The notes beneath the pieces were generated by a model. The model worked only from the letters and a program-made list of their open reading frames with translations, ran no database searches and was not told the origin of the DNA. From positions 95,077-159,076 of the forward strand of contig CAYFFQ010000004.1 of the NCBI GenBank assembly GCA_964342465.1: DNA of 64,000 nucleotides, read 5' to 3'. Both the position numbers and the translations under genes were made by a program. The DNA comes from an uncultured Candidatus Poseidoniales archaeon (GTDB lineage: Archaea > Thermoplasmatota > Poseidoniia > Poseidoniales > Thalassarchaeaceae). Below are positions 24,632-36,812 of the stretch, one piece after another. How positions within the stretch are numbered: the stretch's first letter is position 1; each line of letters begins with the position of its first letter.

Positions 24632-26104
24632 TCACCGCCAAGTCAACTCGAAACTGTCGGTCACATATTCCACCAACCTATCGTCGGTGATGACGGCCAC
24701 CCCGCCTTCTGCCAACCCGCATTGTCTATGGGGGGTGCCATCTCTCAGAATTGACAATCCATTTGATAGACTGTTGGCCATCAACTGCCAAAGTAGAGGG
24801 ATTTGGTCGCGGCTTGCTGGCAGCAATGGGCCACTCTCGAATAGGCTGGAAACCGAGGTGTCGAGGATGCGAGAATACTCTTCCATCGTAATATCCATGT
24901 TGACAATCTGGGGGATTGAGATGGCGGGGAAGTTGACCCCCGTTTTCTCCACCAGATTGACCCCAATTCCGAGTACGACCTTTTGGTGCGAACCCGTCTG
25001 ACGACCCTCGACGAGACATCCTGATAATTTTCCCCCCCCCACCCAAACATCGTTCGGCCAGCGAATCGCTACAGATTTCTCACTGCTGTCACCAGCCTCT
25101 GCCCAATGTACGCTGGCCAGACTTCTATCTTGCAGCAGCCTGACTGAGTCCACCACTGCGAGTGCAGCGCGCACTTGGGTCAGGGTGGCGGAAGCGAGGA
25201 CATTTTCTTCGTCCAAGAGCCAACTGCCGGTGAAATCCCCTGTTTCCGAGTACCAACTTCTCCCTCGCTGACCTCGGCCTGCCGCCTGGTTGACGGCTAC
25301 TAGACAGTCACCGATTACCGACTCTGCATCGAGGAGTGCCCTGTTGGTGGAATCGACTTCCCCTACTACGGTCATTTTCCTCCCTTGCCAAGGCCTCCAA
25401 GCAGAGACGCATGTTAACACCTCGCCGTCACCGAGGGTCATCTGTTCTGCGATTCGAGTTGCGAACCCTCCTTTTCGCCATCGGTTCTGTAGCATCCTCC
25501 CCCTTTTGGATGATGTGTGGATTAGGTGGACCGTACCGCCATCGGCCAACAGTTCTGGAATATCACCGAGAACTCGCAAGAGTTTGTCGGACCAACCCTC
25601 CTCGCCTTTCAAATCAACCAGTCCCGCATCTTCGAGTGGCCCAAGCCTCGCCTCCCCTACAGATGGGGGGTCGAGATATGGTAGGTTCCAGACAATGAGG
25701 TGATAAGGTGCTAAGGAAACTAATTCCGGGGTCATCCTCACCTCCCCTGAATCATTCAAATCAATGCCACCCTCGACTGTGGTTATCTCGATGTTGTACT
25801 CTATTGCATTACCTTTGGTAGCGGCTACTGCTAGTGGATTGACATCACAAGCCGTCACCTGCCACCCTCGTTGGGCGGCTGCAATCGAGATGGCTCCGGA
25901 GCCACAGCCGATCTCAAGCATCCGCCGCCCGCCCCCTCCGCCTATTCTTCCTATACATCTGTCCAATAGCGTAGTATCAATCCTAGGTGGGTAGACAGTA
26001 GGCGGTACCCGAAGGTGCATTCGGCGCAGTCCGGCCGCTCTCCACTCGTACATGACGGCGGGAGTGGATGAGATGGCGACTTCGCGGCTGATGAGTTCAT
26101 CCAC
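24632..26104 (-). CDS. birA: Fusion: HemK/Mtq2-like SAM-dependent methyltransferase (N) + biotin--[acetyl-CoA-carboxylase] ligase BirA (C)
   Basis: The N-terminal half has VYPPRIDTTLL, LEIGCGSGAISIAAA (SAM motif I) and IVWNLPYL (NPPY-type motif). The C-terminal half has QAAGRGQRGRSWYSETG (BirA GRGRxGRxW motif), IRWPNDVWVGGGKLSGCLVE and VVLGIGVN. Confidence 0.8.
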   Translation of the reverse strand: MDELISREVAISSTPAVMYEWRAAGLRRMHLRVPPTVYPPRIDTTLLDRCIGRIGGGGGRRMLEIGCGSGAISIAAAQRGWQVTACDVNPLAVAATKGNAIEYNIEITTVEGGIDLNDSGEVRMTPELVSLAPYHLIVWNLPYLDPPSVGEARLGPLEDAGLVDLKGEEGWSDKLLRVLGDIPELLADGGTVHLIHTSSKRGRMLQNRWRKGGFATRIAEQMTLGDGEVLTCVSAWRPWQGRKMTVVGEVDSTNRALLDAESVIGDCLVAVNQAAGRGQRGRSWYSETGDFTGSWLLDEENVLASATLTQVRAALAVVDSVRLLQDRSLASVHWAEAGDSSEKSVAIRWPNDVWVGGGKLSGCLVEGRQTGSHQKVVLGIGVNLVEKTGVNFPAISIPQIVNMDITMEEYSRILDTSVSSLFESGPLLPASRDQIPLLWQLMANSLSNGLSILRDGTPHRQCGLAEGGVAVITDDRLVEYVTDSFELTWR

Positions 26105-26295
26105 ATCTCTCGGAGAAGGTGGCTAATATCAAGCGTTTTCTCTCGGATTAGAGGATACCTTTATTTCAAACCCCTCTGAATGGAGTACCGGAGGAGCCAA
26201 CTCCACCACTGACTGGGCGGTCAGCATGGTTAGCGTATGCCATGCGGTAGGTTTTTGAATAGTACCCAAGTCCGAGGTTAGCCCACTACAGCCAT

Positions 26296-26369
26296 GGGCC
26301 TGTAGCTCAGTCAGGTAGAGCGACGGACTTTTAATCCGTTGGTCGCGGGTTCGAACCCCGTCGGGCCCG
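26296..26369 (+). tRNA. tRNA-Lys (anticodon UUU)
   Basis: Folded by hand. Acceptor GGGCCTG/CGGGCCC (one G-U pair), D arm GCTC-AGTCAGGTA-GAGC, anticodon arm ACGGA-CTTTTAA-TCCGT, variable TGGTC, T arm GCGGG-TTCGAAC-CCCGT, discriminator G. 74 nt, no encoded CCA. Confidence 0.9.
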
Positions 26370-26420
26370 CTCGCCGCTGGGACGCAGTACTGTGGTTGTG
26401 AAGGGTTACGGGGTGTTGGC

Positions 26421-27011
26421 ATGGCGGTAAAATCATCAACGAAGAAGAGGCTGATGGAACTTGGAGTCAAGGAAGAACTGGCCCACAAACTCGCCGACGA
26501 CGCCAACATGGATACCATCAAGAAGATGAGTACGAACGATGTCGCAACCAAACTCGGACTCAAGATTGGCGACAACGAACTCGAATCCATCATGGACATC
26601 ATTCGTAAGCAGACCGCATCGAAGAGAAGCCAGCCGACTCGCAGAGTCGAGATGAAGGCGAGGCTCAGAAAACTGGAAACCAACATCCCGTTAGGTGAAC
26701 GCAGATTCAACGTTCTCAACCATGAACTCGTCCCCATGCATGAACTCGTTCCTCTTGAGGAGGAGGTGGGCGAATTAGCACCTTGGGAACTTATGGGAGA
26801 GGGTTTCGATGGCGAACCCCGCCTCCGCCGTGAACTTCTCCCCAAGATTCTAATTTCAGACCCAGCGATTCAGTCACTCAAAGAGGCCTCGGAAGCGGCA
26901 GACCCGGAGTTGCGAGCAGGGTGGTTGAAGAACCGCATCGTGAGGATCACGAGAAGGAGTCCTTCGGCCGGCTCCCACATCGCATACAGACTAGTGGTAG
27001 AGGGTATCTGA
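26421..27011 (+). CDS. rpoH: DNA-directed RNA polymerase subunit H (Rpb5 homologue) with ~95 aa N-terminal extension
   Basis: The C-terminal ~100 aa (FNVLNHELVPMHELV...LPKILISDPAIQSL...IVRITRRSPSAGSHIAYRLVV) is canonical RpoH. At 196 aa it is over twice the usual ~80 aa. Position immediately upstream of rpoB. Confidence 0.85.
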   Translation: MAVKSSTKKRLMELGVKEELAHKLADDANMDTIKKMSTNDVATKLGLKIGDNELESIMDIIRKQTASKRSQPTRRVEMKARLRKLETNIPLGERRFNVLNHELVPMHELVPLEEEVGELAPWELMGEGFDGEPRLRRELLPKILISDPAIQSLKEASEAADPELRAGWLKNRIVRITRRSPSAGSHIAYRLVVEGI

Positions 27012-27025
27012 GGGGGGTTGAAAAC

Positions 27026-30000
27026 ATGCGAGAGATCATTGAGACATATTTCAGAGAGAGAAGCCTAGTGAACCATCAGATTGCATCTTACGATGACTGC
27101 CTCCCCAAGGGTGATGGCAGTGAATGCCGGTTCGAGAAGATAATCCAGAACATCCGAATCGGGACCGACGAGATCATCAACGATGACGAAGGTGGATTGG
27201 TCAAACTAGACGTGCTTGATAATGAGATTTCCGTCAGAATGAAGAATCTCACTCTCGGCCCACCTACAATCCGCGAAGCGAACGGAGCCAACAACGAGAA
27301 TGCTACTCCCCTCGAGTGTCGCTTGAGGAAACTCACTTACGGTTCACCGATCTATCTCGACTTCACCATCAACAGGGAAGACCTCCCCACCCCTATCAAG
27401 GAGGACAGAGTGCAGGTGGGTACCATGCCCATCATGGTCCGCTCAGAGCGATGCAACCTCCACCCGAGCCATGTAGACAGAGACAGAAACCTCAACCCGA
27501 GTATGAGTGAGGAGGACAAGGCATACTACGAGAACCTCCTCGCAAAGATGGGTGAGGACCCCAACGACCCAGGTGGGTATTTTATCATCAACGGAACAGA
27601 GCGCGTCCTCATTTCGATGGAGGACCTCGCCCCCAACCGAGTGACGGTTGAGATGAACAAGAGATACAGTAGAAAGACAGAGGTTGCCAAGATTTTCTCC
27701 CAGAAGGATGGTGTGAGGAAACCTTTGACCGTCGAGAAGAGGAAGGATGGAATGCTGATGGTGAAAATCAGTTCCGCAGGAGCACAGGTCATTCCCGCAG
27801 TTCTGCTGATGCGCGCTCTTGGAATTGATTCAGACGAGGAGATTTTCGCCTCTATCGCCGGCCAGAAAGAGGCATTCAAGTATGTCGTGGCCAATATCAA
27901 TCATGTCCGCGACCCACATACGAAGGACGCCTACGGGGTCGAGACCCATGAGGAGGCAATCGGTTGGCTGGAGAAGAAATTTGCCGCCGGCCAGCAGAAG
28001 GACTACCGAGAACAGCGTGTCACCAATCTGATGGACAAGGAACTTCTCCCTCATCTTGGCGACCAACCCGAACACCGAATGAAGAAGGCGGTATTCTTGG
28101 GGAGAATAGTCAGACAGGTTCTCGAGATGGCCATCTCCGAAGACCAGAAACCGAATGACAAGGACCACTACGCCAACAAGCGTGTCCGTCTCGCTGGTGA
28201 CCTCATTGAAGACCTGTTCAGGGTCAGCATGAGCCAACTCGCACGCGACCTGAAGTACCAGTTGGAGCGTCATCACAACCGCAAGCGCGAGTTGAAAATA
28301 GGCAGTTGTCTGAGGCCAGATGTCCTGACCTCCAAGATAATGCACGCCCTCGCTACTGGCAACTGGGTAGGTGGCCGCACCGGTGTCAGTCAACTGCTGG
28401 ACCGCACGACATTCATCTCCGCCCTCTCCCACATGCGCAGGGTGACAAGCCCTCTCGTTCGCAGCCAACCTCATTTTGAGGCGCGAGACCTGCACCCTAC
28501 TCAATGGGGCAGATTGTGCCCCAATGAGACTCCTGAAGGTCAGAACTGCGGTTTGGTGAAGAATGCGGCCCACATGATTGATGTTTCTGAGGCAGTCCGC
28601 GAAGACGATGTCAAGGCACTCCTGCTAGAGGCCGGCGTCATCGAGCCGGAAGACTGGTCGGAAGGCTCCCGTGTTCACGTCAATGGCGACATTTTCGGAC
28701 TGCATAAGAATCCACACCGACTCGTCCAGCACTTCAAGAGGAGACGCAGAAACGGCAGAATCCGTCCAGAGGTCTCAATCCGCCACGATTCCGTCAACCG
28801 CGACATCTTCATCAACACCGACAAGGGTAGAATCTTGCGGCCCCTGTTGGTACTTGAGTCTGGCAACATCGTCCTCTCCAAGGAGCACCTCACAAACCTC
28901 AGAAACAGAGAGGTGACCTTCACCGACCTCATCAACGAGGGTGTAGTCGAGTGGGTGGATGCTGAGGAAGAAGAGGACCTACTCATCGCACCGCGGCCGT
29001 TCGACCTGCCACACTTCTCACCGAAGTTCAACCGACCCATCAATCCAGCCAAGGTGACATGGACCAACCTCGGTGAATTCGAAATCGACAGTGCGAACCT
29101 CGAAGTTGAAGTCCAACTCCCCAACGGTAAATGGGAGACTGAGCGGTTTCAGGTTCCATTGAACTACCATCAAGACGATGTCGATGCACTTCGCCGCAAG
29201 GAGAGAAGGTCCGGAGAGGTTTTGGTCTACACCCATGTTGAGATAGACCCACAGTTGATTCTCGGTGTCTGCGCTTCCCTTGTGCCATATCCTGAGCACA
29301 ACTCCACGCCTAGAGTCACAGGTGGTACGGCGATGGTGAAACAATCCCTCGGATTGCCATCAAGTAATCACCGAGTAAGGCCAGACACCCGCATGCATGT
29401 TCTGGACTACCCGCAGCGTTCTATAGTTCAAACTGAGGCGATGAAGCACACCCGATTCGTTGAACGGCCGGGCGGCCAGAATTACATCGTCGCCGTCCTC
29501 AGCCACCACGGCTACAACATGCAGGACGCGGTCATCATGAACCGAGCCTCGGTAGAACGCGCCCTCGGCCGCTCCAGTTTCACTCGCACATACAATGCAG
29601 AGAGAAAGAGATTTCCGGGCGGACAGGAAGAGGAGATCCAAATCCCAGGCGTTGGCCAAGATGAGGTCAAAGGTCGCAAGGATGGGACCGAGTATGAACA
29701 TCTTGAATTCGATGGACTCCCTCACCCTGAGACCTTCCTTTCGGGAAAGAACGATGAGAACAAGGCGGTGTTGGTTGGGAAAACCAGTCCACCACGCTTC
29801 TTGGAAGAGGGCCATGGTGCATTCATGATGGGCCAATACCGTCAGGAATCGAGCATGCATGTACGGCACGGTGAGTCAGGTCATCTCGACCACCTCTTCG
29901 TCACAGAGAGTCTGGACGCTGGAAGATTGGTTAGAATCACCCTGCGTCAACACAGAATTCCCGAATTGGGAGACAAGTTCTCCTCCCGCCACGGACAGAA

Positions 30001-30702
30001 AGGTGTGATCGGCCGGCTTGTCGATCAGGAAGACATGCCCTTCACCGTCGATGGTGTGGTCCCTGACCTCATAATCAACCCGCACGCTATCCCAAGCCGC
30101 ATGACCGTCGCCCACATCCTCGAGATGATCGGTGGCAAGACCGGAGCGATGGAAGGGAGATTTATCGATGCGACTGCCTTCTCTGGTGAGAAGGAAGCTG
30201 CCATCAGGGAAGGACTGCTGAGAAACGGATACCAGCATACCGGTCGTGAGCGAATGGTGAACGGTGAGACCGGTGAAGAATATCCAGCCAATGTCTTCGT
30301 AGGCTGCATCTACTACCAGAAACTGCATCACATGGTATCGAGCAAGATTCACGCCCGCGCTAGAGGTCGTGTCCAGATTCTCACCCATCAGCCGACAGAG
30401 GGTCGTGCCCGACAAGGCGGATTGAGATTCGGTGAGATGGAGAGAGACTGCCTCATCGCCCACGGTGCGTCGATGGTCATTAAGGACAGATTGCTCGATG
30501 AATCCGACGGCGTGACACTGGCTGTCTGTGCAGAGAGCGGCCATGTGGCATATTGGGACAACCGCCGTCGTTGTCATATCAGCCCGGTTCACGGAGAGGG
30601 TGCTGAAGTTCATCTCGTGGAGACCTCGTACGCATTCAAACTGCTCCTCGATGAGATGAAATCGCTTGGAGTCGCTATGCGGCTCCAATTGGAGGACAGG
30701 AG

Positions 30703-30706
<4 letters not shown>
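27026..30706 (+). CDS. rpoB: DNA-directed RNA polymerase subunit B (unsplit)
   Basis: 1226 aa from ATG 27026 (MREIIETYFRERSLVNHQIASYD). Conserved blocks include GYFIINGTERV, FEARDLHPTQWGRLCPNETPEGQNCGLVKN, SSRHGQKGV and GGLRFGEMERDCLIAHGA. The track start at 26921 overlaps rpoH. Confidence 0.95.
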
Positions 30707-35342
<4,636 letters not shown>

Positions 35343-35387: not shown

Positions 35388-35687
35388 ATGGATATTGTAA
35401 AACAATTGCGAAATGCGATGAAGAGTGGCAGCCTGCTGTTTGGTCAGAATCAGGCTGAGGCTGCCTGTGCGAAAGGGGAAGCGAAGTTGGTGATAGTTGC
35501 TGCTAACTGTCCGCGAGATTATGTGGAAAACCTGCACACCTCCCACCCTGATGTACCTCTTCATCAGGTGCCGCTCGTCAACAGAGAACTCGGTGCGGCT
35601 TGTGCAAAGCCATTCCATGTGAGTTCCATCTGTGTGCTTGACGCCGGTAACAGCGACCTGCTCTCATTGGACACCAATGTCGAATGA
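35388..35687 (+). CDS. rpl30e: Ribosomal protein eL30 (L30e)
   Basis: 99 aa. LLFGQNQAEAACAKGEAKLVIVAANCP is typical of L30e/L7Ae-fold eL30. Conserved position after rpoA''. Confidence 0.85.
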   Translation: MDIVKQLRNAMKSGSLLFGQNQAEAACAKGEAKLVIVAANCPRDYVENLHTSHPDVPLHQVPLVNRELGAACAKPFHVSSICVLDAGNSDLLSLDTNVE

Positions 35688-35849: not shown

Positions 35850-36812
35850 ATGGCCTTCTCTCTATCTTCAGTCCTTAGTGAACTGGGAATAGAAATTGAA
35901 GAGGTGGGGATGGTCAGCAGGACCCCTGGAATCACCTGCCTCGGCACAATTTCATCACTGTATGATGATACGGTGCGCTGTCCTCTACCAATTGGCTCAT
36001 TCGTTTGGCACGCCGAGGCTGGGTGGGCGGCGATTGACAGGATGGAGATGGAGCGCTGGATGGTTGACGCTCCGGCAGGAAATCACTGGATGATATCGGA
36101 GAGAAAGTTGGTTGAACTGAACCGACTCCCCTCCCGCGAGGGGGTCGTATTGACCCTCTGGTCGTCAGAAACACTCAGCGCTTGGCTGGGCAGGGCCGTG
36201 TTGGAAGGCAAACTACACCTCTCCTGCTCACATGTCGCAGCAACATCGACATTCACATCGATACAGGACCGTGCCGAGTCGTTGAGCACACCGGAACCGA
36301 AAGCCATTGCCCTCAAACCGAGCGTCAACCTTACCGATTGGTTACGGGATATGGGATACGAGTCCCTACCCGTAAAACCACTCCTTCTCGAGGGTAGGAG
36401 ATGGGATGTGTGTGGGGAGTTGGTGGGCCCGGAAGATACTCGTGAGAGCCATTCGTGGTCACTCTTGGATGACCCGTTCCTGAACTCCCTGTCACCCGCA
36501 GAAGATGCTCAGGAGTTGCCATTCGTGCCGCAGTTGGAGCGGTTGCAGCCGCCATTTTGGCGAAGTCAGGGAACTATCCGCTCTGAACTGACGACGGTCT
36601 GTGAGGAGAGGCGCCACTGGAGGGTCAATCAAACATCTGCTGATGGTCTTGTGCAGGGAAGTATTCTGCACTGGTGGCGAATTGACGAAAAAACCGCAGA
36701 GATGACTCACTCGCCCGTACTGATTCCTGCTTGGCAGGTGGAATTTCCCGACAGTGGGGCCATGGTTGTGCATGGACTATGCGGAAAACTTGTCAATCTG
36801 CCCAAATTGTAG
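35850..36812 (+). CDS. Hypothetical protein, Trp-rich, no recognisable motif
   Basis: 320 aa ORF with coding-like composition. Unusually Trp-rich by eye (more than a dozen W). Occupies the position where nusA/rps12/rps7 normally follow rpl30e. Confidence 0.5.
   Translation: MAFSLSSVLSELGIEIEEVGMVSRTPGITCLGTISSLYDDTVRCPLPIGSFVWHAEAGWAAIDRMEMERWMVDAPAGNHWMISERKLVELNRLPSREGVVLTLWSSETLSAWLGRAVLEGKLHLSCSHVAATSTFTSIQDRAESLSTPEPKAIALKPSVNLTDWLRDMGYESLPVKPLLLEGRRWDVCGELVGPEDTRESHSWSLLDDPFLNSLSPAEDAQELPFVPQLERLQPPFWRSQGTIRSELTTVCEERRHWRVNQTSADGLVQGSILHWWRIDEKTAEMTHSPVLIPAWQVEFPDSGAMVVHGLCGKLVNLPKL

Follow-up and report, generated by a model that had tools for sequence, protein, structure and literature searches.

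An N-terminal domain shared by RNA polymerase subunits RpoH and RpoA'' of Poseidoniales and by proteins of mobile-element-like loci

Contig CAYFFQ010000004.1 of an uncultured Candidatus Poseidoniales archaeon (Thalassarchaeaceae) carries genes of the DNA-dependent RNA polymerase. The stretch of 64,000 nucleotides (nt) analysed here (positions 95,077 to 159,076 of its forward strand) is called the window, and coordinates refer to it unless another contig is named. Two of the encoded polymerase subunits, RpoH and RpoA'', begin with N-terminal extensions that share a module of ~65 residues. The module is predicted to be an undescribed domain family with a five-helix fold of the double helix-hairpin-helix type, (HhH)2, or SAM-like. 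It is not confined to the polymerase, being found also at the head of about 20-25 families of other proteins, and the genomic contexts read for these proteins look like ORFan-rich mobile elements. This distribution is the main point that goes beyond a preliminary description of the locus made from its sequence, whose reading as a whole is partly supported. The module has the look of a tag that addresses proteins to the transcription machinery and that mobile elements have copied. By analogy with the carboxyl-terminal domain of the bacterial alpha subunit (alpha-CTD), it would be a flexibly tethered adaptor for one conserved target at the transcribing polymerase, a reading to which a probability of about 0.4 is given.

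Paralogous N-terminal extensions of RpoH and RpoA''

The RpoH of the window has 196 amino acids (aa) and an identical protein is present in the databases (P0001, 100% identity). The long N-terminal extension reported in the preliminary description is borne out by the family models, which begin only at residues 94-96. NCBIfam NF007129 (RpoH, 80 positions) aligns residues 94-194 to its positions 3-79 with 52.2 bits against a cut-off of 83, and Pfam RNA_pol_Rpb5_C (PF01191) aligns residues 96-192 to positions 1-73 with 56.6 bits against a cut-off of 23.5. The extension amounts to ~93 aa; the interval 26421-26705 codes for residues 1-95. The canonical RpoH domain holds in addition an internal insertion of ~22 aa (residues ~110-136, nt ~26750-26830), seen as 101 residues facing 77 model positions. 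AlphaFold2 models a beta-hairpin there (residues 125-135), and the insertion probably contributes to the low NCBIfam score. In RpoA'', residues 130-505 align to positions 2-365 of TIGR02389 (367 positions) with 429 bits (cut-off 420.65), and the extension is of ~129 aa.

Sequence comparison confirms that the two N-termini are paralogous, as had been proposed for their first ~65 residues. BLASTP aligns RpoH 1-84 with RpoA'' 1-82 at 29/84 identities with a single gap of two residues (E=8e-12). The first 46 positions align without gaps, and a recount gave 20 identities, the number estimated earlier by eye. The similarity is significant: the Smith-Waterman score of 126 compares with 29+/-5 in 5000 shuffles, whose maximum was 61 (z=18.5). 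A tblastn search within the window finds exactly two copies of the module, those of RpoH and RpoA''.

Conservation of the extensions in Poseidoniales

A search for homologues of the window's RpoH found 897 proteins. The 120 listed have 184-222 aa and the extension is aligned in them at 59-89% identity; those with a name, Ca. Thalassarchaeum betae among them, belong to Poseidoniales. Between residue 66 and the canonical domain there is no conserved methionine, so that a canonical-length RpoH cannot arise from a conserved internal start codon. The 216-aa RpoH of Marine Group IIa (MGIIa, Ca. Poseidoniaceae; P0267 / MBL6891026.1, L091 94-744) also carries the module, in a third subtype (...LATDRNM) intermediate between the H-type and A''-type modules found in RpoH and RpoA'' of the window. 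Since the module is present in both MGIIa and MGIIb, the arrangement is older than the split of the two groups. The lineage-specific decoration of the polymerase anticipated in the preliminary description is kept across the order, and on this comparison the extensions are real and ancient.

Conservation of the RpoA'' N-terminus was assessed by scanning species-representative genomes for the pattern M[VA]VKS[AS]TKK, which yielded at least 598 stretches, 586 of them confirmed; the best 80 were used and all lie in rpoA'' genes. The record titles are mostly Poseidoniales, Thalassarchaeaceae or Marine Group II, and about one third are generic (Euryarchaeota, Methanobacteriota, Thermoplasmatota/Thermoplasmata archaeon). 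Residues 1-13, 18, 22, 24-26, 28-34, 36, 41-42, 45 and 49 are 95-99% invariant in the 80 genomes, with 99% for residues 1-13. Synonymous codons vary freely in the same region: Ser5 is coded by AGY and TCN, and Leu and Arg by all six of their codons. Selection therefore acts on the protein and not on an RNA element, and an RNA or translation-initiation signal behind the 5' conservation is ruled out. In 72 full-length RpoA'' from species-level genomes (511-531 aa), conservation reaches 0.97 at residues 1-15, compared with 1.00 in the trigger-loop block, while pairwise identity over the full length averages 0.69. Protein-level selection on the module is very strong.

The module at the head of other proteins

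A profile of the module compared with 1.84 billion representative proteins gave 212 matches at E<=0.001, 142 of them at E<=1e-10, and nearly all begin at residue 1. When the RpoA'' and RpoH sequences, fragments included, are set aside, the regions that follow the module fall into 28 clusters, of which about 20-25 are unrelated to the polymerase. Most of the families carry an A''-type module (..DRKW..), three an H-type module (..DANM/L..; P0266, P0298, P0309) and several the type of the MGIIa RpoH (..TDRNM..). The first 13 residues are near-identical between non-polymerase copies while their codons differ, which shows that purifying selection acts on these copies as well. The families with assigned members or coordinates are listed in Table 1.

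Three kinds of cargo give some hint of their activity. In P0306 and P0408 a single TFIIB cyclin repeat comes after the module, which occupies the usual place of the zinc ribbon of transcription factor B (TFB). This combination is known from two cluster representatives only, on short contigs, and a search for more gave one relative. P0326 is an exception to the placement at residue 1, and its ATPase weakly matches the retron Eco8 effector, PtuA and MADS3 defence ATPases. The family of 210-225 aa has a C-terminus composed of an acidic stretch and then (F/W)DGLGSLFG-COOH, with a second, internal GFRGLGSLF. The archaeal ribosomal stalk protein aP1 ends in L103-S104-A105-L106-F107-G108; L103, L106, F107 and the terminal carboxylate of G108 contact aEF1A, and L103, L106 and F107 are also needed for aEF2 (PMC4267659). 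Judged by this likeness of sequence, the tail may be a mimic of the stalk tail joined to a polymerase-type tag. No aP1 of Poseidoniales was found in the window or in the retrieved loci, and the comparison is with the aP1 of PMC4267659.

The readable genomic contexts of the module genes are runs of open reading frames (ORFs) on the same strand, nearly all without Pfam or PHROG match. The recognizable genes code for DNA methyltransferases, an HNH endonuclease, a ParA-like ATPase, a 5'-3' exonuclease and an ERCC4-like nuclease. The GC content of these contexts is 39-46%, against 53% in the window, and related contigs reach 118-155 kb. At one locus two module genes are adjacent (L094 9968-10531 and 10563-11099). 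This locus belongs to an abundant marine element, found also in L095, L096, L001 and L003, which is made almost entirely of same-strand ORFans along with genes for DNA methyltransferases, an HNH endonuclease and a ParA-like ATPase. Beyond these three functions, scanning the element loci against PHROG brought up only families without a known function and a weak spanin-like match. A Tara size fraction of 0.1-0.22 um is the source of one cluster member. The families of P0306, P0318, P0279 and P0295 are known only from contigs of 1-3 kb, too short to classify.

Searches in virus collections returned no counterpart. IMG/VR was scanned with peptide patterns and, separately, with a degenerate DNA pattern, and neither scan produced a confirmed match. 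tblastn of GenBank phage records with a module protein and with the module alone found no match, so the elements are not the published magroviruses in that collection. A bioRxiv paper on the Charybdis elements of Poseidoniales contains nothing related.

Predicted fold and charge of the module

AlphaFold2 predicts the same five-helix layout, two helix-hairpin-helix motifs and a connector helix, in both subunits. The helices span residues 2-13, 18-25, 30-34, 38-45 and 52-66 in RpoH, with a predicted local distance difference test score (pLDDT) of 75-80, and residues 6-13, 18-25, 30-34, 38-45 and 49-65 in RpoA''; module pLDDT is 75-82 across the two proteins. In RpoH the bundle is followed by a segment of pLDDT <50 (residues 68-102) and then by the Rpb5-like domain. 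The RpoA'' tether has no helix or strand at residues 66-98, with a mean pLDDT of 51-64 in blocks covering 61-90 and <50 at 68-75, and three further helices come after it.

Among the top Foldseek hits of the RpoA'' N-terminus, the high-probability matches are consistently (HhH)2 structures: NusA (4mtn), FANCM-FAAP24 (4bxo, 9hjo), the N-terminal domains of RadA/Rad51 (2zuc, 1pzn, 8bsc, 8xbw) and Topo V, with a probability of 0.9-1.0 and a root-mean-square deviation of 2.2-2.7 A over 54-68 columns. For the whole RpoH model the matches are confined to subunit H and Rpb5 C-terminal domains (chain H of 7oqy, 8cro, 4qiw and 2waq; E=6e-6 to 5e-4), and a Foldseek search of the viral structure library BFVD gave noise only.

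The preliminary description had assigned the module to a helix-extension-helix (HeH)/SAP or Rho-N fold, and this part of it is not supported. SAP, HeH, LEM and Rho-N are two-helix motifs of ~35 residues; the predicted unit is instead a five-helix bundle of ~65 residues, with (HhH)2 proteins as its structural neighbours. SAP and Rho-N structures are not among the top Foldseek matches of the RpoA'' module, and neither SAP nor Rho_N is listed by Pfam scans at E<=1 with the whole proteins or at E<=10 with the isolated modules; the scan with the isolated modules lists no HhH family either.

Both the Lys-rich first helix of the module and an acidic patch are invariant, and its first hairpin has a single conserved glycine, G15 (94%). 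Contact with DNA or RNA, proposed in the preliminary description, is putative, since only the tethers have a basic charge. The folded part is mildly acidic, at a net charge of -1 to -2 (mean -1.6 in RpoA'' and -1.2 in RpoH). The tethers, 30-40 residues long, are strongly basic: RpoH residues 65-95 have a net charge of +2 to +7 (mean +4.4, 28 homologues) and RpoA'' residues 61-98 one of +5 to +12 (mean +7.9, 72 genomes).

A tethered adaptor at the polymerase and its alternatives

The reading favoured here is that the module is an adaptor comparable to the alpha-CTD. Each enzyme would have two flexibly tethered copies extending from the lower-jaw side, the location of RpoH. Helix 1 with its lysines (K4, K8-K10) and the basic tether would contact DNA, and the conserved acidic face (D13, E18, D26, D27, D31, D32) would bind a basic protein surface. 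RpoH is placed in the lower jaw near the downstream DNA (PMC2847245). The archaeal Rpo5 (RpoH) lacks the Rpb5 jaw, which leaves a positively charged groove exposed next to the clamp head; this groove is where Rpo13 docks in Sulfolobus, and in Thermus it is filled by a beta' insertion, in eukaryotes in part by the Rpb5 jaw (PMC2675907). The groove between RpoH and the clamp head is a candidate for the basic surface. Mobile elements would have copied the module to bring their own proteins to the same place, the TFIIB-cyclin protein being among the delivered cargo, with the module standing in for the polymerase-docking zinc ribbon of TFB. Four features argue for a specific shared target rather than generic binding of nucleic acids: the near-identical tag on unrelated proteins, the slightly acidic fold, the TFIIB-cyclin fusion, and the spread over ~20-25 families, several of them in mobile-element-like contexts.

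Several observations weigh against this reading. Searches with the module in Pfam (E<=10), NCBIfam, and PDB sequences and profiles gave nothing meaningful, and hhalign against Rad51/RadA N-terminal domains, with manually entered reference sequences, gave a probability of 16% in a different register. The (HhH)2 assignment comes from predicted structure only, with weak Foldseek E-values of 0.1-2, none below 0.001. Hairpin 2 reads C-E-T-D-S, without glycine, in 15/28 aligned RpoA'', and position 46 is glycine in 69% of the 80 genomes. The AlphaFold2 model of RpoH leaves the module undocked from its own canonical domain (predicted template modelling score, pTM, 0.43), and long disordered tethers are more in keeping with a partner captured in trans than with a fixed position in the groove. 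On the side of the elements, PHROG scans of their loci did not find capsid, portal or terminase genes, for which reason they are called virus- or plasmid-like mobile elements and not viruses, and their assignment to Poseidoniales hosts comes solely from the module itself.

A first alternative, rather unlikely, is that the modules are purely a clamp of non-specific double-stranded-DNA-binding (HhH)2 domains, of the kind known in Topo V, RuvA or Rpo13, which hold the downstream DNA and raise processivity or salt tolerance, other proteins reusing a general domain. The fold class typically binds the DNA backbone, RpoH lies near the downstream DNA (PMC2847245), helix 1 is rich in Lys, the tethers carry positive charge, and among the fusion partners are DNA-related proteins (the OLD-like ATPase, the TFIIB cyclin repeat, zinc ribbons). 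However, the folded module has a negative net charge and its acidic patch is invariant, and hairpin 2 lacks its glycine in about half of the aligned RpoA''. General DNA-binding domains diverge widely between paralogues, whereas here 13 N-terminal residues including Met1 are near-identical across ~20-25 families at saturated synonymous sites, and the module stands almost always at residue 1.

It is unlikely, if conceivable, that the module is a docking tag for the polymerase, the H-type and A''-type copies forming or occupying a landing site on the lower-jaw/clamp-head side of the enzyme to which elements attach ~20 families of effectors. If so, the effectors would include the TFB-like cyclin protein, the OLD-like ATPase and stalk-tail mimics that could bring aEF1A and aEF2 to the polymerase, and the elements would possess a modular takeover system working by mimicry of polymerase subunit domains.

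That the H-type and A''-type modules pair on the polymerase into an (HhH)2 heterodimer, as in ERCC1-XPF and FANCM-FAAP24, with element proteins pairing with one of the resident modules, is quite unlikely. The FANCM-FAAP24 domains are among the best structural matches, the two subtypes are distinct and each is strongly conserved, the domain is bipolar (basic helix 1 and acidic patch), and the other proteins carry A''-type (most of them), H-type (P0266, P0298, P0309) or MGIIa RpoH-type modules. Yet a fixed dimer needs no long tethers, and both modules are too invariant for a test of covariation.

A target away from DNA and polymerase is improbable, though the extreme conservation and the tethered architecture would suit capture of such a partner in trans. 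The module would then bind a conserved cellular component, for instance the ribosome or a translation factor in transcription-translation coupling, or a chromatin protein, to which polymerase and element proteins are both recruited. The aP1-like tail of one module family gives a link to the translation machinery, but the remaining fusions, with a TFIIB cyclin and an ATPase, speak instead for DNA and transcription.

An artefact (a wrongly called start, a fused upstream ORF or a decaying, non-functional leader) is hardly credible: some gene callers do begin RpoH at Met12, giving database entries of 184-185 aa, but conservation of the protein spans the whole order, no internal start codon is conserved, the ATG at 26421 is preceded at a distance of 7-12 nt by a GGGGTG motif, the ATG of rpoA'' overlaps the rpoA' stop codon, and the antisense ORF 26129-26845 codes for a low-complexity product rich in Ser, Arg and Pro.

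Organization of the locus

The order rpoH-rpoB-rpoA'-rpoA'' (Table 1) is the one expected for an archaeal subunit H locus, with rpoB named from its position, size and translation. The antisense ORF just mentioned (minus strand, 238 aa) lies over the 5' half of rpoH and we take it to be a shadow ORF of the conserved gene on the plus strand.

RpoA' carries an insertion of its own, of ~170 aa (residues ~396-566), with a split CxxC...CxxC pair (CLNPEC ... CPHC) and located just N-terminal of the NRQPSLH motif. The NCBIfam models of A' skip it (residues ~400-565) and a Pfam scan gave no match. It is kept at 57-66% identity in 13/13 other Poseidoniales rpoA' genes extracted.

Upstream, on the minus strand (24632-26104), a 490-aa ORF codes for a fusion of two domains, one of a class-I methyltransferase (residues ~58-113) and one from the biotin/lipoate ligase family (265-383). 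A 320-aa ORF without match in a Pfam scan lies directly 3' of rpl30e (35850-36812, plus strand). In archaeal polymerase operons the position after rpl30e is often that of nusA.

Table 1. Features of the polymerase locus in the window and module proteins encoded elsewhere (locations in other contigs are preceded by the contig handle)
Feature	Location	Strand	Basis or remarks
tRNA-Lys(UUU)	26296..26370	+	ARAGORN; 50 nt upstream of rpoH
rpoH	26421..27011	+	196 aa + stop; ORF list, Pfam PF01191 56.6 bits
H-type module, RpoH 1-66	26421..26618	+	AlphaFold2 five-helix bundle (predicted); paralogy to RpoA''; kept in RpoH homologues
Basic tether, predicted disordered, RpoH 67-93	26619..26699	+	pLDDT <50 for 68-102; net positive charge
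Canonical RpoH/Rpb5 assembly domain, RpoH 94-196	26700..27008	+	NF007129, PF01191
rpoB	27026..30706	+	Begins 15 nt past rpoH stop; ~1225 aa; named by gene order, size and reading of the translation
rpoA'	30703..33807	+	1034 aa; ~170-aa insertion at about nt 31888-32400
rpoA''	33807..35342	+	511 aa + stop; start overlaps rpoA' stop codon by 1 nt
A''-type module, RpoA'' 1-65	33807..34001	+	AlphaFold2 five-helix bundle (predicted); Foldseek; conservation in 72 genomes
Basic low-confidence tether, RpoA'' 66-98	34002..34100	+	AlphaFold2 without helix or strand; net positive charge
Further lineage-specific helices, RpoA'' 99-129, not common to RpoH	34101..34193	+	AlphaFold2 helices 99-106, 114-126
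Canonical RpoA'', residues 130-511, including trigger-loop motif	34194..35339	+	TIGR02389
rpl30e	35388-35687	+	Next gene after rpoA''
Module family of ~190 aa			P0218-P0226
Module family of 210-225 aa	L004 3965-4600 (P0216)		Alignment A5: P0216, P0279, P0280, P0305, P0329, P0331
Module family of 316-337 aa
Module family of 284-295 aa
Module protein P0291			1292 aa
Zinc-ribbon-rich module proteins			P0266, P0309
P0326	L086 1012-3567		851 aa; N-terminal zinc fingers, module at 93-149, AAA_15/AAA_21 ATPase of OLD/PtuA type
P0306	L087 314-895		Module, then single TFIIB cyclin repeat; Pfam 25.9 bits, cut-off 23.6
P0408	L098 291-908		As P0306

Relation to known systems

The bacterial alpha-CTD is among the closest known systems: a small helical domain of (HhH)2/SAM-like type, present in two copies per enzyme on flexible linkers, which is an adaptor for DNA and protein factors. 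It differs in being C-terminal, with both copies coming from one homodimeric subunit, whereas the module is N-terminal on two different subunits, H and A''. A relationship in sequence was not detected, the alpha-CTD family PF03118 being missing from the Pfam output of the whole proteins and of the isolated modules.

The N-terminal jaw of eukaryotic Rpb5 is likewise an extra domain preceding an RpoH-like assembly domain, and lies on the lower jaw at the downstream DNA (PMC2675907), but it has a different fold and is rigid rather than tethered. Pfam gave no match to Rpb5_N (PF03871), and where Foldseek aligns Rpb5 chains it does so over only ~97 columns, the extent of the C-terminal domain. Rpo13 of Sulfolobales and Desulfurococcales is also a small, lineage-specific helical addition with a Lys-rich part, which adjoins RpoH and the clamp head and for which contact with downstream DNA is proposed (PMC2675907; PMC13257274). 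Rpo13, however, is a subunit of its own with a helix-turn-helix, whereas the module has five helices and is fused. Nor does a second subunit carry a duplicate of Rpo13, and it is not known from proteins of mobile elements. Foldseek with either model found no chain of 2waq besides H; no direct sequence comparison with Rpo13 was made.

The best structural neighbours are the RadA/Rad51 N-terminal domain, FANCM-FAAP24, itself a heterodimer, ERCC1-XPF, NusA and the Topo V repeats. The acidic repeats of NusA are protein-protein modules. The RadA/Rad51, FANCM-FAAP24, NusA and Topo V domains show no significant sequence or profile similarity to the module, in which the hairpin signatures are only partly present. 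Tail-fibre anchors of phages and trafficking domains of polymorphic toxins combine a conserved N-terminal delivery domain with variable C-terminal cargo. The module resembles them as a single conserved N-terminal domain that precedes many unrelated C-terminal regions on mobile elements; unlike them, it is also integral to two polymerase subunits of the host.

Archaeal RpoH is stated to have no N-terminal extension (PMC3906176). A 2026 survey of subunit variation in archaeal polymerases centres on Rpo6 and Rpo8, and a term search of its text gave no Poseidoniales, Thermoplasmatota or Rpo5 N-terminal extension (PMC13257274). No description of the extension was found in literature joining Poseidoniales or Marine Group II with polymerase subunits. 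Lineage-specific decorations of polymerases as such are already known; what is new is that the predicted domain family is undescribed, has been duplicated on two subunits and has spread to proteins of mobile elements.

Significance

Poseidoniales (Marine Group II) are abundant marine archaea whose transcription machinery has been assumed to be standard euryarchaeal. If the adaptor reading is true, the RpoH side of the polymerase would have been elaborated independently in a fourth way, besides the Rpb5 jaw, Rpo13 and the Thermus beta' insertion, and the module would be an archaeal counterpart of the alpha-CTD in its logic. Its 13-residue N-terminal sequence tag could serve to assign orphan marine contigs to Poseidoniales hosts. 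The presence of the module, under purifying selection, on mobile-element proteins provides a testable handle on how such elements engage the transcription, and possibly the translation, of an uncultivated host.

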